Below are positions 12,371 to 33,941 of a stretch of DNA of 64,000 nt, piece by piece. Made by a program: the position numbers and the translations under genes. Origin of the DNA: Bdellovibrionales bacterium (lineage in GTDB: Bacteria; Bdellovibrionota; Bdellovibrionia; Bdellovibrionales; DASUEL01); assembly GCA_050250255.1 (NCBI GenBank), contig JBFWOZ010000006.1, positions 1-64,000 on the forward strand, read 5' to 3'. The notes under the pieces were generated by a model. It searched no databases, had not been told where the DNA came from, and was given only the letters and a program-made list of their open reading frames with translations. Position 1 is the stretch's first letter. Each line of letters starts with the position of its first letter.

Positions 12371-13304
12371 ACCCAACGAAATCTATATCACTCGAGTCTA
12401 CGATGCTCCTGCCAAAGCAGTCTGGGAAGCGTGGACCGACCCTAAGAAAGCCGCAAAATGGTGGGGACCACGCGGCTTCACGATCACCACTCATAGTAAA
12501 GATTTGCGTCCCGGCGGTACCTGGGACTACACCATGCATGGACCGGACGGAACGGATTATCCAAACGTAACCCTGTATCATGAGGTCGAAGAGTGCTCGC
12601 GCCTCGTTTATGATCACGGAGGTAGTCACGATAAGCCACCGCTTTTTCGAGTGACTGTGGACTTTACCGAAACAAAAGGTAAAACCAAAATGGAAATGAC
12701 CATGGCGCTCGCTTCTGCCGAGGCCGCAACCGAGACAAAAAAATTCATCAAAAAGGCCAACGGGAATTCCACTTGGGATCGCTTGGGTGAATACCTCACC
12801 AAAGAATCTTCGGGGAAAGAACAGTTTATTATCAACCGTTCTTTTGATGTGCCTCTTGAGACCATGTTTGAGATGTGGACCAACCCCAAACATTTTTCAA
12901 AGTGGCTCGCGCCCACAGGATTTAGCATGGAGTTTATCCGTGCGGATATTCAGACTGGGGGTAGCACATTTTATTTTATGACCGATGGAAAAACAAAAAT
13001 GTACGGACGGGCGAAGTATTTAGAAGTACAGAAACCGAATCGTCTCGTTTACACACAGCAATTCACTGACGAAAAAGAAAATGTTTCTAGGCACCCACAC
13101 GCACCCACTTGGCCCGAGACGATGCTGACAACCGTGACGCTCTCAGAAGAGGGACCCAACCAGACACGTGTTACCGTCTTGTGGGAGACACATGGAAATG
13201 TGACGAAGGAAGAACTCGAAACATTTATCAAAGCCAAAGCCGGCATGATGCAGGGATGGACCGGATCCTTTGATAAACTCGAAAATTATTTGCCGAAGAT
13301 TTAA
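12354..13304 (+). CDS. Tandem SRPBCC (AHSA1-like) domain protein
   Basis: Two SRPBCC repeats (VWEAWTDP..WWGP.GF; FEMWTNP..WLAPTGF; GWTGSFDKL). Confidence 0.9.
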   Translation: MAAKNKPNEIYITRVYDAPAKAVWEAWTDPKKAAKWWGPRGFTITTHSKDLRPGGTWDYTMHGPDGTDYPNVTLYHEVEECSRLVYDHGGSHDKPPLFRVTVDFTETKGKTKMEMTMALASAEAATETKKFIKKANGNSTWDRLGEYLTKESSGKEQFIINRSFDVPLETMFEMWTNPKHFSKWLAPTGFSMEFIRADIQTGGSTFYFMTDGKTKMYGRAKYLEVQKPNRLVYTQQFTDEKENVSRHPHAPTWPETMLTTVTLSEEGPNQTRVTVLWETHGNVTKEELETFIKAKAGMMQGWTGSFDKLENYLPKI

Positions 13305-15400
13305 TTTGGTTTTAGCCGTGAACCACATAAGGGAGCTGTCGTCTGCGAAGACTTCTTTTCTGCAGACGACGCTTTCTTATTGAGAAACCAATTATCTTTG
13401 TACTCCCCGACCATCGCGGGAATCTTTAAAGCTGAATAACGAAACCACCCCAGCACAACGCCCCTCAGAAAGCTTGTTGCGAGGAGGCGTCGCATACGTT
13501 GAGGATCTATTTCTTTTGATAATTCGACCAATGAACCTGAAACCGGCGCAAGAGTTCGAAGGGCTTGTGTGTACCTGGCGGAACCTTGATACTTTAATTC
13601 GTAGGAGGCCCGTTTAAGAATTTCAGAGAAGACCTCTGAAAAATCATCTAAAATCTTTCTCGAAATTTCGTTATTTAGAAAGTCTGACGGTGTACGAGAC
13701 TCAATTTTCCATTTTTCAAAAACTTCTTGAATTAACTTTTGAAGCTTCTCCGGAGGCTCTTGGGGATTTTTGCTCATAAGGACCATTTGTTTAGCAACGC
13801 CGAGGGAGTTCCCCATCGCAAAATAGTAAGCTGCTTTGAGTGGATAAGAAATTAAACCTTTTGTTTTGACCGTCTGAGCAAAGTCAACGAGACCGAGCTT
13901 AGATGTCGTACCTTCTTTTTCAATATCGTCAAACATTTTCTCAACGATATTTCCCGTGTGAAGATCGGCATGGAGCTCCTTCAAAACAAAAATCATGTAG
14001 AGGGTGGTTTCGAGAAGACTTGAAAATGTTTTTTCTATTCCTTTTTGGCGGTTTTTTTGTTCTTGCGTGAACTGCCCCGGCTCATCAAACATCTCCGCCA
14101 ATGAGGTTCCGCTCGCAAGAGATTTTCTTAAGTTCGCCCCGTCTATTTCTTCCATCGTGATAATTGATTTTGTCGTATATTTATCAAAAACCTTTGGAAC
14201 AACAATATTGAAGTGTAGCCAAAAAAATCTTCGATACTTCTTTAAATTTTTCACTTCTTGACCGAGAAAGTTCAGCTCTCCCTCAAACGCGAGCTCAAGG
14301 CCCATTACTTGATCCGTAATAAAGTTAATAATCGGTGCGGTTTTCTCTGTAGTGAAAACAGCTAGTGATTTCATGAGGAATTGATTAAATTTTTTATTAA
14401 ATTCCAACTCTTCAAGGAGACCAGGCCTCTGAACCTTGATAATCACAGATCTGACTCTGCCCCATTCTTTTATTTTCGCTTTATAGGTGACCGCGATGGA
14501 GCCACTCGCAATGGGTTTTTCAGGGTCAAAATCGATAAATATCTCTCGCGGATCTCTGCCCAACTCGCGAGTCATGATTTCAAGAACTTCTTTGGTAGAC
14601 ATTGGTGGTACACGGTCTTGGAATACACTGAGAGACTCAGACACTCCTGAAGGAAGGAGAAAATCCATGTTACTCAATGTTTGGGCGAGCTTGATATAAA
14701 ACACGCCGAGAGAAGAAATATTTTTTACAATCTCCCTCATCTTGGCTGGTGAGATTGAGTCTCGTGGCTCCCCATCTTCAAGCGAAAGGAGCCCCATAAT
14801 ATTTTTTATTGCTTTTCCCTGTTTGTAAAAAAAGAGCAGATCTCTTTTGATTTTTTCAACACCCTCAGATCGCCCCGTGGGGTCCGACTGTAATACCTGA
14901 AAGAGTGCGCGTTCCTCAAGTGCCACCAGGAAACGCAGAGCTTCAAGCGAAGCAGAGAGTTTGTAATAAAAATCTTCAGGATTCTTCTTTAAATACGCTT
15001 CCAATTTTTTTGAAAGCTCGGAGAGCTGAGCAACAGGTAGTCGTACTGTTTTTGCGGTTGCTTGGAGTTCGGCATTAAGACCGAGAGACTTTAAAAAATG
15101 GTCCTCTGTGAGGTCAAAGGCAACTTGTTTTAATCCGGGGAGAGTTTCGCTTCCTTTTTGAGTCAGCCACTGTGCGGTTTCGTAACAACTCTGCCGACAA
15201 GTTTCGTCGAACGTGTGGAAGAACCGACTGATCTGCGCGCTCTTCATTTCTTCTGAAAACTCTGGTGCTCTAATGACATTCCACGTCTGATGAAGCTCGC
15301 GAGAGAGGTCTTCGACGGTCGGTTTTGTCGGCCCGGCAAACGCTTCTGGTACAAACAGGAAAAGGGCGAAAAAAAGAAGACTGATTTTCATGAAATTCAT
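13301..15400 (-). CDS. ABC1/AarF/UbiB-family atypical kinase with N-terminal signal peptide
   Basis: YIKLAQ, FQDRVPP, IASGSIA, IKVQRP, HADLHTGNI, VDF motifs; MKISLLFFALFLFVPEAFA signal peptide. Confidence 0.85.
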   Translation of the reverse strand: MNFMKISLLFFALFLFVPEAFAGPTKPTVEDLSRELHQTWNVIRAPEFSEEMKSAQISRFFHTFDETCRQSCYETAQWLTQKGSETLPGLKQVAFDLTEDHFLKSLGLNAELQATAKTVRLPVAQLSELSKKLEAYLKKNPEDFYYKLSASLEALRFLVALEERALFQVLQSDPTGRSEGVEKIKRDLLFFYKQGKAIKNIMGLLSLEDGEPRDSISPAKMREIVKNISSLGVFYIKLAQTLSNMDFLLPSGVSESLSVFQDRVPPMSTKEVLEIMTRELGRDPREIFIDFDPEKPIASGSIAVTYKAKIKEWGRVRSVIIKVQRPGLLEELEFNKKFNQFLMKSLAVFTTEKTAPIINFITDQVMGLELAFEGELNFLGQEVKNLKKYRRFFWLHFNIVVPKVFDKYTTKSIITMEEIDGANLRKSLASGTSLAEMFDEPGQFTQEQKNRQKGIEKTFSSLLETTLYMIFVLKELHADLHTGNIVEKMFDDIEKEGTTSKLGLVDFAQTVKTKGLISYPLKAAYYFAMGNSLGVAKQMVLMSKNPQEPPEKLQKLIQEVFEKWKIESRTPSDFLNNEISRKILDDFSEVFSEILKRASYELKYQGSARYTQALRTLAPVSGSLVELSKEIDPQRMRRLLATSFLRGVVLGWFRYSALKIPAMVGEYKDNWFLNKKASSAEKKSSQTTAPLCGSRLKPN

Positions 15401-15413
15401 CGAGAAGCCTAGC

Positions 15414-15429
15414 AGCAATCACCACGCCA
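15414..15429 (-). promoter_or_regulatory. sigma54 promoter
   Basis: TGGCGTGGTGATTGCT, C of the GC lies 15 nt before ATG 15400. Confidence 0.65.
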
Positions 15430-15800
15430 AGAAAGACGCTTTTCCAAAGCCTTGTAAGGCTTCTAAAAGCCTTTATTCCCTCGAGAAATCTCTCTCGATG
15501 CTTAATCTTTTAGCACTGTGACATTACTGGGCGTTTGGGGAATGGCATTTGCACCATAAGCACATCAACTCGGCAGAGTCCGAATTGATCGTACTTTTGT
15601 GGCAAATTGCCTCGAGAGGTCGCAAGAAAGAACTAAGGGGGGGCTACATGTTCAAATTGTTCGTTTTCGTTAGCTTTTTATTTCCGGAATTTTCTCAAGC
15701 GGCCAGATGGCTCTGTACCCGTAAGCGATGATGGCGGGAATAAAATCTGGCGAGTCGCTCCCGTAAAAGAAGAAAAGAAATAATTAACCAAAGGAATAAA

Positions 15801-16328
15801 ATGGAAAAATCAACTGAACAATTAGACGGACGTACGGATCAGAAAAAGAATTTAAAACACTTACCCATTGTGATCGAAAGGGTTTTTCAAGCCCCTGTCG
15901 AAAAACTTTGGAAAGCCTGGTCAACAGTTGGGCTGCTCAAACAATGGTGGGGACCTAATGGTTACTCTTCTCCCGAAGCTAAAATGGATTTTCGTGTCGG
16001 AGGAGATTATCTCTTTTCCATGCAAGGTCCTGACGGAAAAGTCACTTGGAGTGGAGGAACCTACAGATCCATTATCCCAAACAAAAAAATTGTCTGCACT
16101 GATCACTTCGCGGACAACGACGGAACCATCATTTCTGCCAATTCTATTGGTCTTCCTGGTGATTGGCCACAAGAGCTTCGAGTCACTGTTGATTTTGAAA
16201 GTCTCAAGCCTCATCAAACAAAAATGACAGTGACCTATGAAGGGGTTCCTGAGGAAGCGCACGATGATTGTGTCGAAGGATGGAAACAGACGATCGATAA
16301 ATTACAAAAATTAGTGGAAAGTAATTAA
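15801..16328 (+). CDS. SRPBCC (AHSA1-like) domain protein
   Basis: IERVFQAPVEKLWKAWS..WWGP.G; GWKQTIDKL; SD AAGGA. Confidence 0.9.
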   Translation: MEKSTEQLDGRTDQKKNLKHLPIVIERVFQAPVEKLWKAWSTVGLLKQWWGPNGYSSPEAKMDFRVGGDYLFSMQGPDGKVTWSGGTYRSIIPNKKIVCTDHFADNDGTIISANSIGLPGDWPQELRVTVDFESLKPHQTKMTVTYEGVPEEAHDDCVEGWKQTIDKLQKLVESN

Positions 16329-16504: not shown

Positions 16505-16510
16505 GCGGTG

Positions 16511-17358: not shown

Positions 17359-17713
17359 GGGGGCGACATGGCTTCGACGTGGGTAGTGAAATCCAGAGTG
17401 CATGCAGGGGCGTACAACCTCTTTAAAAAAGTGCAAACTTGTATTTGGCAACGAATACGCAATGGCAGCCTAGTTTTAACTAGCGTTACCCGTGGCCTGA
17501 TCTGCCGGTAGTTTGGATCAGGTACCACGTCATTTAATTACCGCTTGAGAACATGAGCTCTCCGATCGTGGTCACAAGAAATGAATCGGGGAAACGGGCC
17601 AGAGAAGGTTGTCTAAGATCGTCTCGGGTCATCTTTAAATCTTAGGCTAAGCATGTAGTATCTTTGTGATGGAGCACCTGCGGACCCGAGTTCGATTCTC
17701 GGCGCCTCCACCA
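17359..17713 (+). ncRNA. ssrA: tmRNA; tag peptide GNEYAMAA* at 17447-17473
   Basis: 5' GGGGGCG..GGCTTCGAC; 3' T-arm GAGTTCGATTCTC and CGCCTCCACCA with G.U acceptor pair; internal tag ORF ending AA-stop; 355 nt. Confidence 0.97.
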
Positions 17714-18776: not shown

Positions 18777-18785
18777 CTATGTCCA

Positions 18786-19904: not shown

Positions 19905-22900
19905 CTAATCAAATACCAAATTTATCTCATGTGTTTTACCGTCGTCTGCTAAAGTAATTTTTTTCGCTTCGGTGATCAACGGGGTGTTGATCTTTATATT
20001 AAACGTATAGGTACTCTTGCCGTGACGATATTGGATTTTAAATTCTTTCCAATTCGGCGGAACGCAAGGCTTTATAGTGACTACATTTTCACAAACTTGA
20101 AAACCGATTATATATTCAACTCCTGCGCGATACATCCAGCCTGCTGCGCCCGTATACCAACTCCAGCCCCCTCTGCCGGTATTTGGCCCTTCAGAGTAGA
20201 CGTCACCGGCTAAAACATAAGGTTCAATTCGGTAACGGTTAGCCCTTGCAATATTTTTTGTGTGATGGATAGGGTTAAGAAACGAAAATAAATCATGGGC
20301 CCTCTGACCATCGCCAAGCAGTGCCGTAGCGATGACAACCCAACTTGCAGCATGGGTGTATTGCCCTCCGTTTTCACGAACTCCTGGTACGTAGCCTTTA
20401 ATGTAACCGGGATCCAGAGTTGTTTGATCAAATGGTTTTGTGAAAAGTAAAATCATCTCATCGTCTGATTTCACCAATCGCTCGTACACGGATTGCATTG
20501 CCATTTTCGCGCGTTCCGGTTGCCCGGCTTCAGAAAGGATCGCCCACGTTTGCGTTAGCGAGTCAATCTGACATTCGTCACTGTTAGACGTCCCCAGTGG
20601 TGTGCCGTCGCCAAAGTACGCTCGACGATACCACGAGCCGTCCCAGGCATTTTGTTCGGTGGATCGGATCAGTAAATCGGCGTGGTTTAGCCACGTCTTT
20701 TGGTGTTCGAGGTCACCCCTTGAGTTTGCCAATGTCGAGAAGTTTTTTAAGTTCGTTATTAAAAACCAGGCTAACCATACGCTTTCGCCCTTTCCATCCA
20801 TGCCGACGTGATTCATTCCGTCGTTCCAGTCGCCACTCCCCATGAGGGGCAGACCGTGTTGGCCAGTTTTTAAACTGGCATCCAGTGCCCGCGCACAGTG
20901 CTCAAAGAGAGAAGCTTTCTGTTGAGAGACCATTGGAATGTAGTACGAGTCTTCTTGCTCTGCTGGCAAAGGTGGTCCTTCGATAAACGACACCGTCTCG
21001 TCAAGTATTGAAGTATCTCCGGTAACCCTAAGATAATGGGAAACTACGTAAGGCAACCATAAGAGATCATCAGAAAAATGAGTGCGCACCCCACGCCCGA
21101 GCGGTGGATGCCACCAATGTTGCACATCGCCCTCTAAAAATTGTCTGCTAGCCGCTCTTAAAATTTGCTCACGTGCCATCTGCGGTGAAGTGAGTGTAAC
21201 GGCCATCACGTCTTGCAATTGATCTCGAAATCCAAAGGCGCCGCCGGCTTGGTAAAAAGCGGCGCGGGCCCACAAGCGGCACACAATTGTTTGGTAGAGA
21301 TACCACTTGTTGATGACAAGATCGAAGCTGCGGTCTGGAGTTTGAACTTGAACTTTACCCAGTAAATCTTGCCACTGAGTTTTCACCCGTTCAAATTCTT
21401 GATCAAGATTAAGCGTGCGCAAGTGGGTGATGAGCTCACGGGCTGTGTCGCGGTCTGGAGTTTGACCTAAAATATAGGCCACCTCCACTTTTTCGCCAGG
21501 TTTTATTTCGATTTGTGTTTGTATGGCAGCGCAGGGATCAAAGGCGCCACCGCTACTTCCGCTTAGTGGTTTATCAAGCAGTAGTCCTGAAGGCTCTGAC
21601 AGGCTAGAATTTCTGCCAATAAATTCTGTGCGATCACAAGTGAATCCGGTTTGGTTTTGTATGACGGCGCTGAACGCGATTTTGGTTCCATGTTCGGCAT
21701 TTCTAGGATTGTGGGCAAAGATCGCTTTGGTTTTTTGATCAAGTTCTGTACATAAAGTAGAAGCCATAGTCGCCCGTGAAAAGCCAAGTACCCATTCAAC
21801 AAAACTTGTAATCGAGAGTCGTCGGGCAGATTTTGATCGGTTTTCGAGAGTCAAACGCGAGACTTTTACGGGTTGATCCACCAGTACGAACTGGTTCAAT
21901 TCTGAAAAAATACCAAATGCGGTCAACTCGAAACGAGAGTAGCCTTGCCCGTGATGGGCTTGGTACACGGCTCCCTCGAGCCGGATCGGGGCCGCGGTCG
22001 GACTCCAGACGGCGCTCGAATCAAGATCAGAAATGTAAAAAGCCTCGCCCGGCGGATCAATAATCGGGTCGTTAGACCACGGGGTGATTTGATTTTCGCG
22101 GCTGTTAGCGGCCCAAGTATAACCCGCGCCACTTTCAGAAACTTGAAAACCAAATTCGGGATTAGCAATAACGTTGATCCACGGGGCTGGCGTTGATTCT
22201 CCAGGCTTTAGCACAATAACGTATTCGTCAGTATCAGTTGAAAAGCCACCATACCCATTGAAAAATTCAAGTCCCGAAACCGAAACGCTTGTGGGTGTGT
22301 TGACCCTCAGAGTTTCTAACTTAGCAGCAGGTAGAAACTGCATGCGGGTGCGTTTCACTTGGTCAGATAAACTACCGTTACGTGCCGAGAGAATGGCTCT
22401 GGCTTCACTGGCCAGCAAAACGTGATCGGCTTCTGAAATAAAATCGCCCCTGATTACAAAAACTTTTCCGGCGGTGTAAGCGAGCCCCGACGGAACGTGA
22501 GCCGCAATCGCCATATTTTCGAGAGTGGTCTGCAATTCTTGCGAGTAGGAGCTACCTCGCTCATTCAATATAACGAGGTCGGCAATAAAGGCTTTGGATG
22601 CAAAATAGATCTGCGCTTTTAGAAGTTGACGAACCAGATTTCGGTCTTCCAGGTCATCAATGCGCACGAGGATAATCGGGTGGTCTCCTGAAATTCCGTG
22701 GGCCCAAAGCCCCGTGACATCCTTGGTATTTTTATTCAAAGTTTCAGAAGGCGCCCTCAATGAGGAGTCTAAATAGATAAGTCTTGTCGTGAGTCTCTGA
22801 AACAAATGCGCTTCATCAGGTTCGATTCCGAGGTGGTAAAGTTTTACTTGCGCTTGGGTCCAGGCCAGATCACTCGCCCGATCAAAGATTGTCGTGTCGC

Positions 22901-25900
22901 TAAATTTTTCGGACATGACTTCGATGTCTTCGCGAGATTCGGCGATGCCGGTTGAAAAAATCAATTGGGTCGACTCACCTGGATCCAGGCGCACCCGCGT
23001 GCGCAAACTCAGGATTGGATCTAACACGGGACCAACGGTTCCAGATAGCCTTTCATTCTTAAAAATGGCGATCGGGTTTTTTGCGCTTCGTCCACGACCG
23101 ATAAACTGAGACCGGCTCGTTTCATATTGAATAGTGCCATTAGAGTGCCGGTCAGTTCGGAGCGTGTGCATGATCCAGAGTCGTTTGTCTTTATTTGACC
23201 TGGGTCTACGACTCGCAATCAGCGTTGAAAGTTTGGGGTTAAATTCAGTTTCGATAAAGAGGTTTGAAAAAGCGGGATGGGCCACGTCGGCGGCCTGAAT
23301 GTTTAAAACGACTTCAGAATAAGAAGTTATCTCAAGCTCCCGAGTGGTCGAGCTATTGTTTGTTAGGGTAAGACGCCTGACTTCGGTGTTCTCTTCGGGA
23401 GACACGAACACTTCAAGTTCGGTGGTGATTTCAAAATCAACTCTAGTGATGCGAGCTCGGTCTTCAGCAAAGGAAACTTCATAACTTTGACTCTCGACAC
23501 AGATCGGTTGATAACCGGCCGACCAAACGTGCCGCTGTTCAATGTCTTTTATATAAAAAAAGTATCCATACTGATCCCTGGTGACGTCTTCGCGCCAACG
23601 TGTGACCGCGACGTCACGAACGCGGCTAAATCCTGCCCCGGCCGAAGTCAACATAACGGTATAAGCGCCGTTCGATAAAAGTTGAGTCGTTGGAATCGCA
23701 CGGTTGACCTTGTGATACCGACGTGAAACGTGTTCGACGGGTTCTTTGACTCGGTCAATTTGTACCGTCAGCTCAGGCTTTGAGATTGTACCGATCACGC
23801 GCGGCGTGCGCTCTTGAAGCAGGAGTTGCGTCGCTTGAACTAAGGGGTCTGAATGAAATCGACGTTGCATCGACGAATTTTTAAAAACATTCGCGAGTGC
23901 GACAAGAGCCATACCCTGGTGATGAGCCATGTAAGCTTTAATAATCGCTTTTTTACTTCCGGAGGGAAGCCTGCTCGGCGTGAAATCCACCGCCTCGTAA
24001 AACCCGTAGCTTCCGAGAGCTCCGAGAGATTGAAGCTGACGTAAGTTTTGGGCAGCAAAGGCCGTTTCGTAAACTGACGCTAGGATTGTTGCGTAAGGCG
24101 CAACGACCATATCCGCACCCAAACCGCGCTTAAGTCCTAAATCTGGTACGCCAAAATTAGAGTACTGATAGGTAAGATGAAGATCTCGTTTATTATAGGC
24201 TGATTCTGACATGCCCCATGGAATATTCTTTTCTTTTCCATACTGAATTTGCCGCAATATAATTCGTCGGCAAGTGTCGTCGAGCAGACTTCCCTCAGGT
24301 GAATGCATGACAATACTTGGCATAAGGTATTCAAACATGGAGCCCGACCAAGATACCAAAGCTGTTTCTCTACCGACACGCACAAGACTTCGGCCTAAAT
24401 GAAACCAATGGGTTGCCGGTACGTCGCCTTTCGCAATCGCAATAAAACTTGTTAACCGCGCCTCAGAGGCGAGCAGATCATAGTAGCTCGGATCGAGCTG
24501 GTTTTCACTCACTCTCATGCCGATCGAAAAAAGTTTTCGATTGGAATCATACAAAAGTTTAAAATCCATTTCGCTAATCAATTGCCTGGAAATTCTTTTT
24601 ACTTCTTGAATTTTTCCAACTAAAAATTGCGACTCTTGGATCGATTGTTCAAGGCTTTCTAATAAGGGGCCAAAAAAATCCGGGACAGAGCGCTTCGCCA
24701 GCTTTTCGCTCTTTTTAAATTGGAGAATATCGTTTTGAATTTTTGCACAGTGAATCGCTAACTTTTCAATTGGGATTTGTTGACTTAAATTTTTGCGCAA
24801 AGCCTCAAACCAACTTTGAGACTCAGGGGTTAGATCAATATTTACTGTAGCGTTCCTAAACTCGGTCCACTTCGCTAGCGACAAAAAATCTCGAGATAAA
24901 CTTTCAATGTCAGCCTGTAGTGCGCAACTCCAAGCTAAGATCTCTTTTCGGTCCGATCGCACCGGATCTCCAGAAAAGGCAGTTGCTTGTTTCACAAGGA
25001 GCTCACTTTGCAAACGTAGGGTGTCCCAATGTTGGGAGCGATCTTCAATCAGGTGATCGGGCGCATGGAGGCGCACCACGAGTGCCGCGTGAGCGGACTT
25101 TACTTTTTCAAAGGATTCATCGCGCTCAGTGTGGTTTGCGGCAAACCGCTTGAACTCTTGCACCAAAAGTAATTCTGAGTCCCGGATACCTCGGTGAATA
25201 CTAAAGGCTTCAATCGGAGACTTTAAAATCTCCTCACAACCCTGCGCGACGACAAAAAGATGGCCCGTTAAATTTCCGTTATCCACTGAAGAAATGTATC
25301 TGGGTTCTAGCGGCCGGGAGTCGACCGTATCATACCAGTTATAGAAATGTCCCCTATGCCGCGGCAGACGAAGCAAACTTTGAAGAGTTAGCTCTAAACG
25401 TTCGACGGCCTCGAGGTTTCCAATCCAACCAAAATCTCTGGCGGCAAAAATGGATAATAAATAAAGGCCGAAATTAGTTGGTGAACTCCGATGGGCAATG
25501 ACGGGGCTTGGGTCTTCTTGAAAATTATCAGGCGGTAAATTGTTATCCTCAGGCGTAACAAAGGTGGTAAAGAACCGCCAAATTCGCCGGCCCGTAGAGC
25601 GAAGGAGAATAAGATCATAGGGACTAATCGGCTGCGAAACCCGTTCTTTGGGAGGCTGACTCAGGTAGTACGCTAACACGGGTGAAGCGAGCCAAAGTAA
25701 AAGAATGGGGGTTGTTACATACATGAACGTGGGATTAAAAATAAAAATGGGAACGATACCTATGGTCACCAAGAAGACCGGGCCCCTCATGCTTCGCACA
25801 AAACTGATCAAATCTAAATTCGCCGAGGCCTTAGCTTGGGCGGCAGTGGTCCACTCCAACATTTTTTTGCGACTTATAAAGAGCCGATAGAAAGTACGAA

Positions 25901-28529
25901 CTATCGCATCCAGGGAGATCCAGGCACTTTGAGGCAGTAACACAAGCAGTACAAACGAATGAATCAGGCCAAGACGAAACTCTGCAAAAGCAAAAAATAC
26001 CTTGTGAAAAAATGGAGTGCTCGAGCGCCGAGGCCATAAATCGGCCACCAAAGTTATGAAGGCTGGAGCTAACAGGTTGAAAGCCATTAATAAATAAAGT
26101 GGCGCTGACAAATCACTCGGAACACTTGCGGCAATAAAAAACAAAATAAAAATTGCTGGTGCATTTAGCGAGCGTCGAAGGTTATCGATCATTTTCCAGT
26201 GACCAATCAGTGAAATATCTCTGCCGCGAGGACCTACGACCCAAGGTAAGAGCAGCCAATCGCCGCGGATCCACCTATGAGAACGTAAGGCCGAAACTCC
26301 GGTGTGAGAGGGGAAATCCTCAAAAAATTCAACGTCACTTAAGAATCCGCATCGAGCTAGGTTTCCTTCAAACAGGTCATGGCTTAAAATGGAATTCTCA
26401 GGGACCCTGTCTTTCATGACCCGTTCAAAAATGGCTACGTCATAAATTCCTTTACCCGTGAATGATCCTTCTTTAAAAAGATCTTGATAAACGTCTGAGA
26501 CCGCCGAAGTGTAAGGATCAATACCTGATCTACTCGCTGATAGTTTTCGAAACAGAGAATTTTCATGTGAGTTGGCTAGAGAAGGAGTGATGCGTGGCTG
26601 AAGAATTCCGTATCCGGCCGTCACTCGCCCGGTTTTTTCGTCAAAGTGGGGCCGATTTAATGGATGGGCCATCGTACCCACTAATTTGTAAGCAGATCCT
26701 CGAGGCATCTTGGTATCGGCATCAAGGGTGATGACGTATCGTATTCCAGTGGGAACACGAAGCTCAGAGTCAAAGCAGGGGCCGTAACTGGTGGTTTTCG
26801 AACCCAGTAATAGCTGATTGAACTCGTGGAGCTTTCCGCGTTTTCGCTCCCAGCCCATCCACTTTCCCTCTTGGGGGTTCCACTTTCGATACCTGTGGTA
26901 AATAGAAAATCTTGGATGCTGGTCTTTAGCTACCGGATGTCGTTCGTTGAGCGAGCGAAGCTCTCGTTTCGCGGTCTCGATTAATTCATCATCGTTTTCT
27001 GAAAATTCACTATTAGAATCACTAAAATCGGTCAGCAGGGCTAGATAGATATTTTCATCTTTGTTCGAGAGGTAATGAATTTCTATTTGCTCAAGCTGTT
27101 CTCTTATTTTTGTTTCATCCGTAAACATGGTCGGCACGACGATGAAAGTTTTGAGAGATTCAGGTAGCCCGTGGTCAAAATTAAGCCTGGGTAAATACTT
27201 TGGACCTAGCAAGGCCACGGTGCTCCGGTTGATAAGGTTAATGGCAATGTCCGAGGCAACAATCGCAATCAGAATTAGAATAAAATAGATTTGAGTAGGC
27301 GCAGACAGTATTGCAATACATGCGGTCAAAACTGCGATCAATAGCAGATAAACAAATATTCCGTTTTTTACGTACCATCTTAAAATTTTAGTGCGCAGCT
27401 CGGCCCGATATTGAATTGATTTTTCAAATTCAAATTTGCCGTCGCCTAACAAGTAGTGACCTGGATTGCTCGACACCGCTTTGGCGATCTCAATCTCAGT
27501 TAATTTTGAATGTCGCGCGAGGTCCTCAATGCGATGACGATACCGATCACGTGTGGGAAAATCCATGGACCCAAAGTTTGAACCTTGTCGTAGAATTTGA
27601 TCAACCAAACTGACTTCTTCAAAAAACTCGGACCAATCAAGGGCCGAGATCAGTCGTGCGCTTGTGATAATATTACGAGAGGTAATATTGGCCGCCGACT
27701 GACTGTTGTGTTCTTTCGTCACCCAGGTCTCGATGACTTCTCCAGTGGCTGCCAATTTATCATCTATAAATTGGAGAAGGGCGCCCACCTTAGTTTCTTG
27801 AAAACGAAGTCTCTGTAAAAGTTGAACGGCGAAACTTTGCTGAATGGAAGTGGATTGCAGTATTTCAACGACTTCTTCAACGCTTCGACTTGGGGTTTCA
27901 CCAACCCCAAGAAGAGAATCGGCAATGAGGTCGGCATCTCTCCGAGTTTTTTGTGAGCTTACAATGCGATCGGCGATACGCCGAAAGTTTTCAACCAGGA
28001 CAAGTCTTAAAGTGATAGGAATGGCCCATAATTCCCCGATCGTGAGGGGCTGAACTTTTTGATAAGCCGCAACGAATATTTTTAATAGGTCAGACTCGAA
28101 CCGACTGTCAGTGTGGGCAACAAAGGCCCAAGCAATTCCAAACACCCGCGGCAATCCCGCAAACGGACCTTCCGCAATCTTTGGCAACTCTTGGTAGTAT
28201 TCAGGTGGAAGATGATCGACAATATCTTTGATCTGGGCGCTAAGAATATGGAAATTATCTACCAGCCACTCGGCAGCAGGAGTTACGGCGCGCTGCTCTT
28301 CAATGGCCAACAGGATTTGGTGGTAAGCTTCTTCTAGTACTTTATGATTTTCGCGAATTCTCGGTCCCAAATCACGCCCCAAACGTGGATTGATCGTAGT
28401 TGTTTGGGCTCGAGCCAGACTTTCGGCATGACCTTCAAGGCGCGCAATACCAAAAATCTCGGCCCGAATAGGCTCGGCATGGTCGTCAAAAAACGAATTA
28501 TTTTTCTTTTTACTAAAAATGCTTTTCAG
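19905..28529 (-). CDS. ndvB: Cyclic beta-1,2-glucan synthase (GT84 + GH94 phosphorylase), probable CTG start
   Basis: GWERKRGKL, TLDADT, SHDLFEG, RWIRGDW, DLLASEARL, GFRDQLQD, GDWNDGMN, ENGGQYTH; conserved EPIRAEIF segment lies upstream of the track start 28382. Confidence 0.93.
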   Translation of the reverse strand: MKSIFSKKKNNSFFDDHAEPIRAEIFGIARLEGHAESLARAQTTTINPRLGRDLGPRIRENHKVLEEAYHQILLAIEEQRAVTPAAEWLVDNFHILSAQIKDIVDHLPPEYYQELPKIAEGPFAGLPRVFGIAWAFVAHTDSRFESDLLKIFVAAYQKVQPLTIGELWAIPITLRLVLVENFRRIADRIVSSQKTRRDADLIADSLLGVGETPSRSVEEVVEILQSTSIQQSFAVQLLQRLRFQETKVGALLQFIDDKLAATGEVIETWVTKEHNSQSAANITSRNIITSARLISALDWSEFFEEVSLVDQILRQGSNFGSMDFPTRDRYRHRIEDLARHSKLTEIEIAKAVSSNPGHYLLGDGKFEFEKSIQYRAELRTKILRWYVKNGIFVYLLLIAVLTACIAILSAPTQIYFILILIAIVASDIAINLINRSTVALLGPKYLPRLNFDHGLPESLKTFIVVPTMFTDETKIREQLEQIEIHYLSNKDENIYLALLTDFSDSNSEFSENDDELIETAKRELRSLNERHPVAKDQHPRFSIYHRYRKWNPQEGKWMGWERKRGKLHEFNQLLLGSKTTSYGPCFDSELRVPTGIRYVITLDADTKMPRGSAYKLVGTMAHPLNRPHFDEKTGRVTAGYGILQPRITPSLANSHENSLFRKLSASRSGIDPYTSAVSDVYQDLFKEGSFTGKGIYDVAIFERVMKDRVPENSILSHDLFEGNLARCGFLSDVEFFEDFPSHTGVSALRSHRWIRGDWLLLPWVVGPRGRDISLIGHWKMIDNLRRSLNAPAIFILFFIAASVPSDLSAPLYLLMAFNLLAPAFITLVADLWPRRSSTPFFHKVFFAFAEFRLGLIHSFVLLVLLPQSAWISLDAIVRTFYRLFISRKKMLEWTTAAQAKASANLDLISFVRSMRGPVFLVTIGIVPIFIFNPTFMYVTTPILLLWLASPVLAYYLSQPPKERVSQPISPYDLILLRSTGRRIWRFFTTFVTPEDNNLPPDNFQEDPSPVIAHRSSPTNFGLYLLSIFAARDFGWIGNLEAVERLELTLQSLLRLPRHRGHFYNWYDTVDSRPLEPRYISSVDNGNLTGHLFVVAQGCEEILKSPIEAFSIHRGIRDSELLLVQEFKRFAANHTERDESFEKVKSAHAALVVRLHAPDHLIEDRSQHWDTLRLQSELLVKQATAFSGDPVRSDRKEILAWSCALQADIESLSRDFLSLAKWTEFRNATVNIDLTPESQSWFEALRKNLSQQIPIEKLAIHCAKIQNDILQFKKSEKLAKRSVPDFFGPLLESLEQSIQESQFLVGKIQEVKRISRQLISEMDFKLLYDSNRKLFSIGMRVSENQLDPSYYDLLASEARLTSFIAIAKGDVPATHWFHLGRSLVRVGRETALVSWSGSMFEYLMPSIVMHSPEGSLLDDTCRRIILRQIQYGKEKNIPWGMSESAYNKRDLHLTYQYSNFGVPDLGLKRGLGADMVVAPYATILASVYETAFAAQNLRQLQSLGALGSYGFYEAVDFTPSRLPSGSKKAIIKAYMAHHQGMALVALANVFKNSSMQRRFHSDPLVQATQLLLQERTPRVIGTISKPELTVQIDRVKEPVEHVSRRYHKVNRAIPTTQLLSNGAYTVMLTSAGAGFSRVRDVAVTRWREDVTRDQYGYFFYIKDIEQRHVWSAGYQPICVESQSYEVSFAEDRARITRVDFEITTELEVFVSPEENTEVRRLTLTNNSSTTRELEITSYSEVVLNIQAADVAHPAFSNLFIETEFNPKLSTLIASRRPRSNKDKRLWIMHTLRTDRHSNGTIQYETSRSQFIGRGRSAKNPIAIFKNERLSGTVGPVLDPILSLRTRVRLDPGESTQLIFSTGIAESREDIEVMSEKFSDTTIFDRASDLAWTQAQVKLYHLGIEPDEAHLFQRLTTRLIYLDSSLRAPSETLNKNTKDVTGLWAHGISGDHPIILVRIDDLEDRNLVRQLLKAQIYFASKAFIADLVILNERGSSYSQELQTTLENMAIAAHVPSGLAYTAGKVFVIRGDFISEADHVLLASEARAILSARNGSLSDQVKRTRMQFLPAAKLETLRVNTPTSVSVSGLEFFNGYGGFSTDTDEYVIVLKPGESTPAPWINVIANPEFGFQVSESGAGYTWAANSRENQITPWSNDPIIDPPGEAFYISDLDSSAVWSPTAAPIRLEGAVYQAHHGQGYSRFELTAFGIFSELNQFVLVDQPVKVSRLTLENRSKSARRLSITSFVEWVLGFSRATMASTLCTELDQKTKAIFAHNPRNAEHGTKIAFSAVIQNQTGFTCDRTEFIGRNSSLSEPSGLLLDKPLSGSSGGAFDPCAAIQTQIEIKPGEKVEVAYILGQTPDRDTARELITHLRTLNLDQEFERVKTQWQDLLGKVQVQTPDRSFDLVINKWYLYQTIVCRLWARAAFYQAGGAFGFRDQLQDVMAVTLTSPQMAREQILRAASRQFLEGDVQHWWHPPLGRGVRTHFSDDLLWLPYVVSHYLRVTGDTSILDETVSFIEGPPLPAEQEDSYYIPMVSQQKASLFEHCARALDASLKTGQHGLPLMGSGDWNDGMNHVGMDGKGESVWLAWFLITNLKNFSTLANSRGDLEHQKTWLNHADLLIRSTEQNAWDGSWYRRAYFGDGTPLGTSNSDECQIDSLTQTWAILSEAGQPERAKMAMQSVYERLVKSDDEMILLFTKPFDQTTLDPGYIKGYVPGVRENGGQYTHAASWVVIATALLGDGQRAHDLFSFLNPIHHTKNIARANRYRIEPYVLAGDVYSEGPNTGRGGWSWYTGAAGWMYRAGVEYIIGFQVCENVVTIKPCVPPNWKEFKIQYRHGKSTYTFNIKINTPLITEAKKITLADDGKTHEINLVFD

Positions 28530-28785: not shown

Positions 28786-28829
28786 TCCAGATGGTTGATT
28801 TGATTCAATTGTGGTTCTTCGAAGATGAG

Positions 28830-29999
28830 TTAGGCCGCTTGCTTCGCTTGGGCTGCCTGGTTTTTTGGTAATATAACAGCAAACCGTGTGTTCCGAGACG
28901 TCGTATCAAGCAAGAGTCTGCCTTTATGTATTTCTACAATTCCTTTTGATATGCTCAACCCTAAACCAGTACCCTTACCAATTTCTTTTGTCGTGAAGAA
29001 CGGCTGCATGATTTTTTCAGCGGTATCAGTCGCGATACCCAGACCGCTGTCCGTAACAGATATCTCAACTTCATCATCCAATTCTTTGACCTCTATACGT
29101 ATCCATTTTTCTGATTCGGTGGCAACCGCATCGACAGAATTATTCAGTAAATTCAAAAGTACTTGAGAGATTTGTATGGCCTGACAGTCAACTTTAATAG
29201 AGTCAGATGTGTTTGGTACCTCTAGGTTGATTTGTAGATGTTTGAGTTTTTGCTGACAGAGGACAAGCGTGTCGCTAATGATAGAGGATACTGAAACCCT
29301 AGTAAACACATCACCATCAGCATTGCGTGAAAAAGTTTTTAAGGCATTTATGATTTTCGAAATTCTAAAGGTGGTGGCTTCAATTGTCTGTGCCGTCTCC
29401 TTGAGTGTGACTGTGTCCAGTTCGTCGTCTTCGATCATGTCCTTGAGTTGTCCCGCGAGAGTAGAAATAATAGCAAGTGGGGAATTCACTTCATGGGCGA
29501 TTCCAGCGGCCATTTCGCCAAGTGCAGACATTTTCATGGAGGAGGCGGCGATGGCTTGTTGGGCTTTGAGTTCTTTTTCAGCGTGAGTGCGGGCTGTGAT
29601 ATCATTGCCAAATCCGATCACTTCGATGAGTGTCCCACTACTCGAAAAGCGATTGAGTGAGTTCCAAGCAACTATTTTTTTTCCACCATCTTTGGTTGTG
29701 AGGGTCATGGCATAGTCGCGAACGGCACCCTTTTCAAAATCTTTAAAAAGTCGTTCGACTTGGGCGTATTCTTCACCTGGGTAGAAGGTAGCCCACCAGT
29801 TTTTACCTATAAGCTCTTCTTTTTTGTATCCCGTTAGGTTTTCAATGGCTGGGTTCACAAAACGTGTGGTTCCGTCTGGGTTGATACCCACTACGAGCGA
29901 AGGAGTGCCTTGAATGATTTGTGCGGTGTAATCTCTCTCAGCCTTTAAATCTTCGAACATTTTTTGATCATGGAACAAATTTTTTAAAAATGACCTCAT
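28830..29999 (-). CDS. PAS-domain sensor histidine kinase
   Basis: PAS (FVNPAIE.LTGY), AGIAHEVNSPL, NLLNNS.DA, DSG.G, GTGLGL. Confidence 0.93.
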   Translation of the reverse strand: MRSFLKNLFHDQKMFEDLKAERDYTAQIIQGTPSLVVGINPDGTTRFVNPAIENLTGYKKEELIGKNWWATFYPGEEYAQVERLFKDFEKGAVRDYAMTLTTKDGGKKIVAWNSLNRFSSSGTLIEVIGFGNDITARTHAEKELKAQQAIAASSMKMSALGEMAAGIAHEVNSPLAIISTLAGQLKDMIEDDELDTVTLKETAQTIEATTFRISKIINALKTFSRNADGDVFTRVSVSSIISDTLVLCQQKLKHLQINLEVPNTSDSIKVDCQAIQISQVLLNLLNNSVDAVATESEKWIRIEVKELDDEVEISVTDSGLGIATDTAEKIMQPFFTTKEIGKGTGLGLSISKGIVEIHKGRLLLDTTSRNTRFAVILPKNQAAQAKQAA

Positions 30000-30037
30000 G
30001 AGAACTTACTCCTTTGAGATAAATAAACACTGTTTTA

Positions 30038-30180
30038 TTATCGGATCCGTACAAAAGTTTTTAAAGCCGAGATTCTAAAAGTGCGTTTTACAGAGGGGAA
30101 AGGGGCCCTTGGTCTGGACGCAATGAGCCTTTTGCTTGGGAGCATAAGAAAACTTAATTTGTTTTAAAAAAATCCGATAC
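30038..30180. promoter_or_regulatory. Divergent sigma28 (FliA)-like promoters
   Basis: Minus TTAAAAAC-N11-TCCGATAA (30064-30038); plus TTAATTTG-N11-TCCGATAC (30154-30180). Confidence 0.55.
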
Positions 30181-30303
30181 TTATCATAAAAGGAACCGCT
30201 TTCTCGCACACCCTGACGACATTATGAGGCCTACACAGCTTTTAAAAAATAAGTCAGCTAATGGCTCAGCGGAAAACAATTCTCGTAAAGAATGGGAGGT
30301 CGG

Positions 30304-31044
30304 GTGCGTGAACCAAAAGATATAAAGATTCTCATAGTTGACGACGAGGCGGACCTGCGCAAGGCCATTGTTTTTGATTTTAAGAAAAGAGGCTTTGTTG
30401 TAAAAGAGGCGGAAAATGGCAAAGTGGCTTTTGAAATTATAAAAAATGAAAATATTGATTTGGTTTTAACGGATGTGAGAATGCCAGATGGTGACGGGGT
30501 TGAGCTTTTAGAAAACATCAAAGCACGCAACTCAGATTTACCTGTCGTGATATTCATTACCGGATTTGCAGACATCACTCTTGAAGAGGCTTATGACAAG
30601 GGAGTGGATGCGGTTTTTGCTAAACCCTTTGATCGTAAGGCACTACTAAACGCGGTGATAAGAGCTCTTTCTGAAAAAGACGCTCAGTGGAAGGCGCGCC
30701 AAACGGAGAGACCGGATTCAAGCTTCACGGTGGAGTTGGGGGTGTACCCATCGGATACTCTATCTCAAGGGCAGGTGCTCAACATTGGGCGCGGTGGTCT
30801 TTTTGTTGCTGTTCCAAATCCAGAACTGATGGCAGGGTGTACAGTGAAGTTTAGCCTTCAGTACGACAAGGAGTCTATGCGCCTACAAGGTACAGGAGTG
30901 ATTAAGTGGGTTCGTAGACAAGCTATAAACAATCTTCCTGCAGGTTACGGCATTCAATTTGACACATTAGACGATGAGAGTCGTAAGCGGACCATTGAGG
31001 TTATCAATAGTTTAAAAACAAAATCGTTTATTCCTAAGTCCTAG
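30304..31044 (+). CDS. Response regulator with C-terminal PilZ domain
   Basis: ILIVDDE..LTDVRMP..KPF receiver; RxxxR (RQTER) and NIGRGG PilZ motifs; GTG after GGAGG. Confidence 0.85.
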   Translation: MREPKDIKILIVDDEADLRKAIVFDFKKRGFVVKEAENGKVAFEIIKNENIDLVLTDVRMPDGDGVELLENIKARNSDLPVVIFITGFADITLEEAYDKGVDAVFAKPFDRKALLNAVIRALSEKDAQWKARQTERPDSSFTVELGVYPSDTLSQGQVLNIGRGGLFVAVPNPELMAGCTVKFSLQYDKESMRLQGTGVIKWVRRQAINNLPAGYGIQFDTLDDESRKRTIEVINSLKTKSFIPKS

Positions 31045-31067
31045 CAGCATAAGAAAAAAGTCGTTGG

Positions 31068-31118
31068 TTAAGACCTTATCCTCAAAAAATGTTGTAAATC
31101 TAGTTGGTCAGTCCCCTT
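31068..31118 (+). repeat. Direct repeat X, copy 2 (about 24-nt internal deletion)
   Basis: TTAAGACCTTATCCTCAAAAAATG-TTGTAAATCTAGTTGGTCAGTCCCCTT. Confidence 0.85.
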
Positions 31119-31824
31119 CACTGCCACCGCGTCTTTGCTTTGAATCTTGGATTTCGCGAACAACAGCCCAGTCATTGATTTGGTAAACTAAGACGTCGAT
31201 CTTTAGATTCAAATGCTGGTTACCAAGGGCGGAACGCAACGCTTGCGTTCTTCCGTTACCGTCGAAGACATAATAGGTACCGTCTGGAGCTTTGGCCGCT
31301 CGTATAACCAATGACTCCGATGGTATAATGGACTTGCGAAGCTGGGCATCGACAGCTCCGGCATTCAAAATCTCGGGAAGACGCTTTTTAATTTCATCAA
31401 TTCGGGTCTGCAGCCTCTGCAAATCGTAGGGTGTCGAAACCTTGTGTGTCGTTGAAAGCTGTCTCAAAGGGACCATATCAGAATAGATCCTAGTCGCCTG
31501 CTGTTCAATCAGGTTTGTCAAATGGGTCGCTTCGATGAGCTCGCGACCAATCTCTTGCCATTTTTCAGGAAACCGTTCGAGCGATTTGAGAAGTTTCTTG
31601 ATAATATTTTGAGACACCCCCTCAAGCGCGAGCGCCTTAATGCCTTGGGATAACTCTGAATGGACGGTGTTTTCAACGAAATCATGTCGGCTTGTCGGAG
31701 CTAGCACTTGGGCGCAATTGATCTTTGGGGCTGATACCGTAACATGCACAGCTGCCAATTTTGGGCTGCCAACTAACGGCAGTATTGCCAGCACAGATAA
31801 TGCAAGTAAGTTCACAGGTTTCAC
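31108..31824 (-). CDS. Secreted protein with C-terminal ParB/sulfiredoxin-like domain
   Basis: Signal peptide; YYVFDGNGRTQAL resembles the ParB/Srx DG.HR motif. Confidence 0.55.
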   Translation of the reverse strand: MKPVNLLALSVLAILPLVGSPKLAAVHVTVSAPKINCAQVLAPTSRHDFVENTVHSELSQGIKALALEGVSQNIIKKLLKSLERFPEKWQEIGRELIEATHLTNLIEQQATRIYSDMVPLRQLSTTHKVSTPYDLQRLQTRIDEIKKRLPEILNAGAVDAQLRKSIIPSESLVIRAAKAPDGTYYVFDGNGRTQALRSALGNQHLNLKIDVLVYQINDWAVVREIQDSKQRRGGSEGD

Positions 31825-31836
31825 GCTAGTAAGTGA

Positions 31837-31852
31837 TGCAATCTTGGTACCT
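31837..31852 (-). promoter_or_regulatory. sigma54 promoter
   Basis: AGGTACCAAGATTGCA, 14 nt before GTG. Confidence 0.55.
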
Positions 31853-31897
31853 GCTACATTCCGTCGAATTGACTCGCAGGTACCACTCTCTGACTCT

Positions 31898-33913
31898 CTA
31901 TTGATTTATGCCGAACCAAATTGTTTCGAACGGAGGTAGCTCCAACTTAATTTTTCCGTTGGCGGAGGTGATGTTGAAATTCCGATCATACAGTAGATCA
32001 ACGAGTTGTCGCGAACCCAAGTTAATATCAACAGTTGCTGTAACCGTATGTTCGCTTAAGTTGTGTAAAATGAGGGTTGTTTCTCCTGGAACGTGTCGAG
32101 CATATGCTAAAGTGCTTGGATTACTTGTGTTTAAAATTTCGATTTCTCCACGTCGAAGCGAAGCACGCTCTTTTCGCACACGAATAAAATGACGAACATA
32201 TTCTAAAACCGAACCTTCTGGTGTTGAGCCTCTCGAAAAAATTGCGTTGTCATACAGAGCCTTTTCGACAGGTCCGCGGCCCTCATCACGAGCATCATAT
32301 TGCCCCCCACGCTCACGCGCAGCCTGTATTGCGTAGGGTTTATTATTTGTGGCCATGACTTCATCACCGTAGTAGATGATGGGCATCCCCTTAAGGCTGA
32401 GCAGATATGAAAAAGCAAGGGTTATACGACGAGGGTCATGCGAAAGAAAATCCGTCATTCTCCCGCCCACTCCCAAATCACCTCGAAAAGACACTCCTTT
32501 TCCAGTACTCAGCAGTGCTCTTTGAATGATTTCACGAACGCGAGGTGGGGCCATTTCAAGCGTTAGCTCATCATGCAACCTTAGAAAATTAGCCCACACT
32601 GTTCCTTTTGGTAGCTCTGGCGTATTCTTCAGAGATTCGATGATGTAGCGTTTGTCTCCCGAAAGCAAACTCGCCCAAGAGTGGGCCATGAGATCGAAGT
32701 TGTATGCCATTTGAGCACCAGATGAAGCAGTTAGTGTTCTTCCGAGACTCTTTATGTAGATATTCTGTGATTTTCCAAAAAACTTTTGAACCACCGAAAG
32801 CTCCTGACAAGCTTCGACAATGATTGAAGTTCTAGGCGCCACTTGAGTGAGCAGATAACGAAGAGATTTCACAAACTCCAATGTTCTCGGATCACTTTCT
32901 CTCTCTTTAAACAAAAAAGGAATAGCATCAAGGCGAATGACATCGGCGCCCTGATTGGCCCAATGGGTGACTATTCGAAATGCCTCGCCCATAACAGCGG
33001 GATTTTTAAAATTCAAATCAAATTGAAAAGGGTAAAACGTGTGATAAATCCAAACGTCTTTTCCATCTGCATCCTTCGTTTTAAAGTAGTGAGGATGGTG
33101 TGGGTCGGCGAAATCAGGAAAGATCACTCGTCGTTCAACTTCTACAGTTTTACCGTATTCGTTTTTTTCGCGATAACGCGCGCTTAGAGGCTTTCCGTTT
33201 TTATCTAGTTTCACATCAAGCACTTCAGGGGGTGTTTTAAGAAAATGAAAATAATTACGATATTGTTTCTCCCCGCGAAGTGCGGCCTTAGCCCAAGCGT
33301 GAGTCTCTGAGACGTGATTCAGTACCAAATCCAGTTGAAAGCTTCCTCTTTTTTGTCTGAGTTTACTAATAAATGATCTGAATTCCCGGTCTCCCCCGAA
33401 TCTTCTATCAACAGTTTTATAATCAGAAACGTCAAAGCCAGCGTCCTTAAACGGCGACTTGAGAAATGGAAGTGCGTAGATCATCGAAACTCCGAGATAG
33501 TCAAAAAGATAATCGGCCATGGCCGTTAGATTCCGGAAGGTGCCCTTTCCTTTCGAAGTTCCGATACCACTCACATAACCCATGTATTGAATTTGATCTA
33601 AGAGTCTGTTTGGATCTTCAATAGCCTTGATATCCTCGGCTCTTAATTCTTTTGAGCGACTCGCCAAACCCTCCTGTACGGCCCTCTCGAATCTTTCAGA
33701 CACACCGACGACAATGTTTCTATCAGAATAAATATTTTCAAAAATTCTAAGTGCATGCGGATCAACTTGAACCGATCTCTGTGGAGAAAGTACTTTATGA
33801 CAGCCCCCACCGGCGGCGTATGTTGGCTGTGCCTTGACGGCAGCAAAAGCTAACTGCATCACCAGATGAAGTAGAACAATCGGTGTGATCACTCGAAATG
33901 GGAGTTGTCGCAT
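31898..33913 (-). CDS. GH13 TreS/amylosucrase-like glycosyltransferase with signal peptide
   Basis: DAGFDVSDY, DLVLNHVS, IRLDAIPFLFK, VEACQ, FLRLHDELTLEM, YYGDE. Confidence 0.85.
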   Translation of the reverse strand: MRQLPFRVITPIVLLHLVMQLAFAAVKAQPTYAAGGGCHKVLSPQRSVQVDPHALRIFENIYSDRNIVVGVSERFERAVQEGLASRSKELRAEDIKAIEDPNRLLDQIQYMGYVSGIGTSKGKGTFRNLTAMADYLFDYLGVSMIYALPFLKSPFKDAGFDVSDYKTVDRRFGGDREFRSFISKLRQKRGSFQLDLVLNHVSETHAWAKAALRGEKQYRNYFHFLKTPPEVLDVKLDKNGKPLSARYREKNEYGKTVEVERRVIFPDFADPHHPHYFKTKDADGKDVWIYHTFYPFQFDLNFKNPAVMGEAFRIVTHWANQGADVIRLDAIPFLFKERESDPRTLEFVKSLRYLLTQVAPRTSIIVEACQELSVVQKFFGKSQNIYIKSLGRTLTASSGAQMAYNFDLMAHSWASLLSGDKRYIIESLKNTPELPKGTVWANFLRLHDELTLEMAPPRVREIIQRALLSTGKGVSFRGDLGVGGRMTDFLSHDPRRITLAFSYLLSLKGMPIIYYGDEVMATNNKPYAIQAARERGGQYDARDEGRGPVEKALYDNAIFSRGSTPEGSVLEYVRHFIRVRKERASLRRGEIEILNTSNPSTLAYARHVPGETTLILHNLSEHTVTATVDINLGSRQLVDLLYDRNFNITSANGKIKLELPPFETIWFGINQ

Positions 33914-33925
33914 ATTAAGAAACCG

Positions 33926-33941
33926 AGCAACTCAAGTGCCA
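33926..33941 (-). promoter_or_regulatory. sigma54 promoter (consensus)
   Basis: TGGCACTTGAGTTGCT, 14 nt before ATG. Confidence 0.8.

Follow-up and report, generated by a model that had tools for sequence, protein, structure and literature searches.

The 64-kb stretch of DNA analysed here (the window, from a Bdellovibrionales bacterium) encodes three proteins, a kinase, a ParB/Srx-like protein and a glycoside hydrolase of family GH13, each combining a signal-peptide-like start with a short cysteine motif near one end. Analysis of these genes, the whole source genome and its relatives reveals a conserved, apparently undescribed lone-cysteine tag on a class of exported proteins. The tag spans five residues, with the consensus C-x-x-hydrophobic-[L/F], and its enrichment, its conservation, the near cysteine-free cores of its carriers and the types of cargo that bear it are all directly observed. 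Our preferred reading, to which we give slightly less than even confidence, is that the tag may be a disulfide-docking address label on about 30 predicted Sec-exported proteins, for delivery into the prey cytoplasm.

The source genome (G000) is 3.09 Mb in size and 99% complete, with the window on contig C6, and a predatory life is deduced for the bacterium from its lineage. The 80 best relatives of its RpoN are labelled Bdellovibrionales, Bdellovibrionota or Oligoflexia nearly throughout, with a few generic labels. A custom script called 2915 genes, signal peptides were assigned by a hydrophobicity/charge heuristic that gave an exported set of 573 proteins, false positives included, and lipobox-like proteins were taken out before the main counts. 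In the last 12 residues, C-x-x-x-[L/F] occurred in 21 of the 573 exported proteins against 10.3 ± 3.0 after shuffling, a level reached in 4 of 3000 shuffles; windows further upstream in the same set gave 4, 2, 5, 7, 6 and 6 matches. The same segment was flat in non-exported proteins (17/1331 vs 16.3 shuffled) and in lipoproteins (2/186 vs 2.9). Within the first 30 residues past the cleavage site, exported proteins gave 31/573 against 19.7 ± 4.1 (16 of 3000 shuffles), an excess that is weaker with lipoproteins still included (32 vs 23.4; 64 of 2000 shuffles). The motif is thus enriched genome-wide at both ends of exported proteins, as the original prediction had anticipated, with about half of motif-only matches being background. 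Exported proteins with a single cysteine place it at an end in 34 of 83 cases (14.5 expected), compared with 60 of 214 non-exported ones (50.7 expected).

A rule-based list comprises 27 carriers, the GH13 protein of the window, which has two cysteines, being admitted by hand exemption. Around three entries are likely false positives and a few carriers are missed through miscalled starts or variant tags, and we estimate the true number in G000 at about 30. One candidate, C34:9024, was removed, having five cysteines and sharing its motif cysteine with a paralogue. The tag is N-terminal in 15 of the 27 carriers and C-terminal in about half. N-terminal tags lie approximately 3–25 residues past the predicted signal peptidase I site (A-x-A), after a polar linker; proteins with C-terminal tags end 5–15 residues past the cysteine, with neither a transmembrane helix nor a basic tail. 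Proline at +6 is present in only 8 of 27 carriers, so that the motif first proposed, C-x-x-x-L-x-P, keeps its cysteine and hydrophobic-[L/F] spacing and loses its final residue. A twin-arginine motif was seen in none of 34 listed candidates, which are therefore not of the Tat type. Carriers also cluster in the genome, nine having another within 5 kb against 2.1 at random (10 of 5000). NCBIfam holds no model for the tag, and none of its sorting models matched among 30 proteins. The tag is likewise undescribed in the full-text literature searched, a coverage that lies outside supplements and subscription papers, which could mention the motif.

The window contains the following features of the three proteins, in which open reading frames, signal-peptide-like starts (a heuristic call) and cysteine motifs all lie where the original prediction had placed them.

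13301..15400, minus strand (ATG at 15400): exported-type ABC1/UbiB atypical kinase, 699 amino acids, from sequence and family match
15335..15400, minus strand: predicted Sec signal peptide of the kinase, 22 amino acids, ending A-F-A (heuristic call)
13307..13327, minus strand: C-terminal tag of the kinase, CGSRLKP, residues 692–698
15414..15428, minus strand: putative sigma54-type −24/−12 site of the kinase gene, 14 nt 5′ of the ATG
31108..31824, minus strand: exported-type protein of probable ParB/Srx fold (a lead only, from sequence and fold search), 238 amino acids, single cysteine
31696..31716, minus strand: N-terminal tag of the ParB/Srx-like protein, CAQVLAP, residues 37–43
31837..31851, minus strand: putative sigma54-type site, 13 nt 5′ of the ParB/Srx-like GTG, within the 73 nt that follow the GH13 gene
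31898..33913, minus strand: exported-type TreS-like GH13 protein, 671 amino acids, from family match
33782..33802, minus strand: N-terminal tag of the GH13 protein, CHKVLSP, residues 38–44
33926..33940, minus strand: putative sigma54-type site, 13 nt 5′ of the GH13 ATG

Two of the three family assignments are firm. The kinase matches PF03109 above cut-off (ABC1, E 1e-33) and has the catalytic Lys, HxD and Asp, with K322, D479, N484 and D506 kept; a conserved C68/C72 pair is separate from the tag cysteine, and the protein ends CGSRLKPN, with the tag at the tip of a tail modelled at low confidence. The GH13 protein matches PF00128 (E 4e-81), its catalytic residues D329, E367 and D448 are invariant and its closest structures are TreS; it scores under the TIGR02456 equivalog cut-off, so its activity may differ from that of TreS. 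The ParB/Srx label rests more lightly: an Atlas feature score of 0.85 and a TM score of 0.62 to a ParBc_2 cluster give a fold lead, Pfam offers no match, and the AlphaFold2 (AF2) model (pLDDT 43) is too poor for use in a fold search. Both AF2 models made in this work are of low confidence (pLDDT 54 and 43).

Retention of the tag was then followed in homologues picked by sequence search, the counts for the HAD-like, ligase-like and EEP families including the query itself. The tag is kept in 29 of 30 HAD-like and in all nine ligase-like proteins, one of the latter with Val at +4. The EEP family shows the strict tag in 83 of 150 members, and 108 have exactly one cysteine behind the signal. Signal and tag are present together in seven of the ten closest GH13 homologues, the other three having neither and being possibly mis-started. 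All seven complete kinase homologues have a cysteine within the last 16 residues, with the strict motif in two and an aliphatic or aromatic residue at +4 in six; they come from at least four further families within the phylum, and one orthologue is named Pseudobdellovibrionaceae. The single orthologue of the ParB-like protein keeps the tag as CRGIVL. Throughout, tags sit in tails that are otherwise unconserved among homologues, and signal-less, cytoplasmic paralogues lack them. Housekeeping UbiB proteins had neither signal nor tag at any of the 20 loci read (of 24), and the genomes behind named Bdellovibrionota records encode tagged EEPs together with separate EEP paralogues devoid of both, in rows that partly overlap our other samples. 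As kin are not independent, these counts show retention and not separate origins. The C-tagged HAD-like gene was found in 22 of 32 sampled genomes of one genus with many closed genomes, which we infer to be the cultured genus Bdellovibrio.

Other searches were less productive. For the S41 carrier, a search at E 1e-60 across 121 genomes returned the query alone; for the amidoligase-SelO carrier there were four domain-level matches, of which three lacked a signal peptide and the fourth was truncated where its locus stops. A kinship between the N-tagged ligase-like family and C-tagged look-alikes was discarded, as the family hidden Markov model gave no link. No clear carriers were seen in 80 rpoN neighbourhoods (1.24 Mb), as expected of housekeeping DNA. 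Separately, a set of EEP proteins (P0130, P0131, P0133, P0141, P0142, P0145, P0148, P0150, P0163, P0264 and a few more) has a long Ala/Pro/Ser-rich leader, often with F-D-G, in place of the cysteine tag. This is possibly a second lineage-specific delivery leader; these proteins recall ones that we presume to be from Elusimicrobiota.

Cysteine is scarce in the cores of tagged families (chosen by homology), where it makes up 0.00–0.14%. Signal-less EEP paralogues reach 1.28%, housekeeping UbiB 0.27% and untagged GH13 0.24%, so that the difference is large for EEP and modest for UbiB and GH13. Even cysteine counts are favoured among the exported proteins of G000, a sign of a disulfide-forming periplasm. 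Single-cysteine tag carriers reach 1610 amino acids, and GH13 orthologues in which Asn replaces the second cysteine still keep the tag, so that the tag cysteine does not form a disulfide within the fold. A solitary thiol at the flexible end of a protein that has shed its competing thiols points to a partner. A motif-blind profile of the 108 EEP tags shows hydrophobic residues at +3 in 52% and at +4 in 85%, with Pro at 1–4% from +1 to +5 and 9–15% from +6 to +9; position +7 is hydrophobic in 31%, mostly Leu. Hydrophobic +3/+4 positions with no proline until +6 suggest a one-turn helix.

Among 28 carriers scanned, five have a Pfam family above cut-off: an amidoligase with a SelO-like domain, an AAA+ protein with M41, an M48 protein with a UbiB domain, and S41 and M28 peptidases. 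The window adds ABC1 and GH13, which brings the UbiB kinases to two. A tagged protein at G000:C4:54534-55772 has R/STS/ExE motifs and gives an ADP-ribosyltransferase-fold lead (TM 0.63 over 116 residues, feature score 0.78), and a methyltransferase of G000 carries a variant tag. HAD, GNAT and Fic labels on carriers are motifs read by eye, and family searches did not confirm the Fic label or several amidoligase ones. In other genomes, a signal peptide and tag occur on a protein with four HTH repeats (L166:8479-10377, genome G037), apparently an exported DNA-binding protein. Another, with a signal-like start and two FHA domains, has a tag-like CANL in an internal linker and adjoins a tagged kinase (L177:214-996, genome G202). 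That folds dependent on ATP, NAD or DNA follow signal peptides speaks for the cytoplasm of another cell as their destination. The claim that cargo consists of cytoplasmic folds is upheld for several ATP-dependent and DNA-binding folds with signal-less, untagged paralogues, and is weakly served by GH13, for reasons given below.

Two side observations concern variant tags. In a 1.8-Mb genome (G009; loci L157 and L159), exported Sel1 and ankyrin proteins end in ...Q-C-Y or C-x-x-x-Y. In G000, an exported-type protein with a variant tag (C36:24424-26619) matches phage family phrog_1745 (E 9e-35), which suggests cargo recruited from phage.

All three window genes were predicted to lie under leaderless sigma54 promoters, with a GG-N10-GC site 14–15 nt before each start. 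The sites are there, at 13 (GH13), 13 (ParB/Srx-like) and 14 nt (kinase), and no AGGA, GGAG or GAGG occurs in the 18 nt before any of the three starts, that of the kinase showing no Shine-Dalgarno-like word. G000 encodes RpoN and yields 13 strong sigma54-activator matches. Of the 27 carriers, 6 have a strict site 12–17 nt before the start, as do 4 of the 546 other exported proteins and 6 of the 2186 remaining genes; leaving out the window genes, 3 of 24 carriers remain (p = 0.002). None was seen at six kinase and GH13 orthologue loci, and other families gave 1/29 (EEP), 2/8 (ligase-like) and 2/29 (HAD-like), with ligase-like and HAD-like loci checked at the first Met alone. A near-leaderless sigma54-type site also lies 13 nt 5′ of the ATG of a Ku gene at 2524, which is followed by a LigD-like gene (window 2497-5872). 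As a general rule for carriers the claim is not supported: the association of sigma54-type sites with carriers is, on sequence grounds, real but partial and locally variable. Two thirds of B. bacteriovorus attack-phase promoters are FliA-type (PMC3627812).

Taken together, we suggest the following course of events. Cargo would leave the predator cytoplasm by Sec export, after which a periplasmic partner might bind the tag as a one-turn helix and hold it by a mixed disulfide. The docked cargo could then be passed on to a further step that carries it into the prey cytoplasm, whose reducing conditions would release it from the disulfide. Cargo would on this account derive from cytoplasmic enzyme families, as exported copies adapted into early-acting effectors that draw on prey ATP, NAD or SAM. 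That Bdellovibrionota possess such a two-step route, with Sec followed by disulfide capture of the tag by a carrier moving kinases, AMPylases, ADP-ribosyltransferases and DNA-binding proteins into the cytoplasm of living prey, is a possibility that we hold with more reserve.

The machinery for the second step was sought in G000, which has a gsp-like cluster and PilB/PilT-like and Tad-like ATPases (identities read from sequence). No type VI secretion system (T6SS) sheath gene was matched in G000, the one genome searched for it. A VirB4-like gene, next to an integrase-like gene, turned up in 5 of 25 other genomes and was not detected in most tag-bearing genomes tested. Type IV secretion systems (T4SS) and T6SS were therefore rejected as the route. 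The VirB4-like gene region, G000:C25:27568-39898, groups the integrase-like gene with VirB2/B3/B4/B6/B9/B10- and coupling-protein-like genes and resembles an integrative and conjugative element.

Several observations weigh against delivery by disulfide docking. The hunt for a partner covered genes with a sigma54-type site before them, exported proteins with a CxxC motif and short open reading frames with signal and tag, and nothing convincing emerged, the CxxC proteins listed being ordinary thioredoxin-like ones. The aromatic residue at +7 that is critical for Mia40 (PMC2806287) has no conserved counterpart in the 108 EEP tags. With 23 of the 28 scanned carriers lacking a Pfam family above cut-off, a cytoplasmic fold is demonstrated for a minority, and the S41 and M28 peptidases are of periplasmic type. 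The GH13 clade bears signals without the tag in other lineages: among the next 109 homologues, several named Gastranaerophilales, 103 have a signal-like start and two the motif, which makes GH13 weak evidence for a cytoplasmic fold. Exported EndoI/SNase-type nucleases are candidates for prey DNA breakdown, and the tag is present in none of 14 from four relatives, which speaks against a universal route; S13 peptidases also lack it (0/10), so this test does not discriminate. No N-to-C swap was seen within any of six families (GH13, kinase, ParB-like, EEP, ligase-like and HAD-like), and the position independence first proposed thus applies between families and not within them. Tag density appeared low in some relatives: 400 kb of G039 yielded a single clear case, and 200 kb of G022 yielded none. 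Finally, the prey inner membrane ruptures early under B. exovorus (PMC11055950), so enzymes might reach the prey cytoplasm without a dedicated step.

Four other explanations were weighed. The cysteine could be lipidated or otherwise modified, anchoring cargo to the predator outer membrane or to vesicles, with the cargo acting at the feeding junction or entering prey by vesicle fusion. Cysteine-based sorting with predicted lipidation in myxobacteria (PMC11980579) and vesicles of ~25 nm in bdelloplasts (10.1101/2022.06.13.496000) speak for this, and cysteine-free cores suit any thiol-directed chemistry. We nonetheless consider it somewhat unlikely: with C-terminal tags followed by no helix or basic tail, and N-terminal tags beyond the signal peptidase I site, nothing holds the cysteine at a membrane enzyme, the +3/+4 hydrophobic pattern resembles a binding face, and ATP-dependent cargo would still need a nucleotide source.

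The tag might instead be a retention or type II secretion signal, the cargo being held in the predator periplasm until contact and then, after a breach of the inner membrane, entering the prey cytoplasm by passive means. The gsp-like cluster and pilus ATPases, the membrane rupture of epibiotic predation (PMC11055950) and the periplasmic-type peptidases fit this scheme. It appears unlikely, given that exported nucleases have no tag, that prey cytoplasm stays bounded while B. bacteriovorus grows (PMC11055950), and that a signal peptide alone takes the NanoLuc reporter to the supernatant in B. bacteriovorus (PMC12622784), from which the tag is probably not needed merely to leave the predator.

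A role for the cysteine enzyme by enzyme, in homodimers, metal binding or a redox switch without shared machinery, is improbable: a lone cysteine on a flexible tail can form intermolecular disulfides, yet some 30 unrelated proteins share one spacing, whichever end bears it, and it occurs solely in exported clades of a single lineage. Chance likeness or half of a fold-internal disulfide, despite the shortness of the motif and its background matches, is very improbable and is refuted for the tag as a class by the shuffle tests, the six conserved families, the single-cysteine carriers, the GH13 orthologues with Asn for the second cysteine and the cysteine-poor cores.

Elsewhere in the window lie a tmRNA gene at 17359-17713 (Rfam RF00023) and, at 19905-28382, a gene for a 2825-residue membrane protein that resembles, by eye, a cyclic beta-1,2-glucan synthase/phosphorylase.

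These findings bear on the question of how Bdellovibrio-type predators bring enzymes into the prey cytoplasm, where a 2025 review describes limited evidence on enzymes and secretion systems (PMC12428579) and where another publication of that year describes secretion as largely unexplored (PMC12622784). The tag supplies a rule for recognising, from sequence, a class of candidate effectors that are mostly orphan proteins. If the two-step route is true, the tag would delimit the phylum's effector repertoire and serve as a portable delivery signal; should it turn out to anchor or retain its carriers, it would still represent a bacterial sorting tag of a new kind.

Among known systems, MYXO-CTERM with its myxosortase MrtX (PMC11980579) is similar in placing a short cysteine tag, within a predatory lineage, on dozens of exported proteins that are unrelated to one another. 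There, however, the cysteine motif is C-terminal, is joined to a transmembrane helix and an Arg-rich tail and serves surface sorting, whereas the present tag, found at either end, lacks both helix and basic tail. In the lipobox (Lgt/LspA/Lnt), the cysteine likewise lies close behind a signal peptide, as in our N-terminal tags, but at the signal peptidase II cleavage site; ours is off the cleavage site, after a polar linker, and C-terminal in about half of the carriers. The B. bacteriovorus nucleases Bd0934, Bd3507, Bd1244 and Bd1934 resemble the cargo in having a signal peptide and being secreted into the bdelloplast, or predicted so, and the available text of their reports (PMC7925074, PMC3593177) does not establish a route beyond Sec. 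The disulfide cysteines of Bdellovibrio EndoI proteins are lost (PMC3593177), and as EndoI and SNase members in four relatives lack the tag, the tagged cargo forms a separate class. T4SS, T6SS and Tad-Kil systems of predatory bacteria (PMC12428579) share with our proposal the contact-dependent delivery of enzymes into prey, known or hypothesised, although a T6SS sheath gene gave no match in G000 and the VirB4-like gene was not detected in most tag-bearing genomes tested. A parallel in form is the Mia40 ITS/MISS signal (PMC2806287), in which, on unrelated proteins, a docking cysteine has hydrophobic residues 3 and 4 positions away within a short helix, a helix that we infer for the tag. That system is eukaryotic and mitochondrial, requires an aromatic at position 7 and finishes with disulfides formed within the molecule, while the tag cysteine is unpaired. 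The likeness could thus offer a model for how the tag is read, as an analogy and not a homology.

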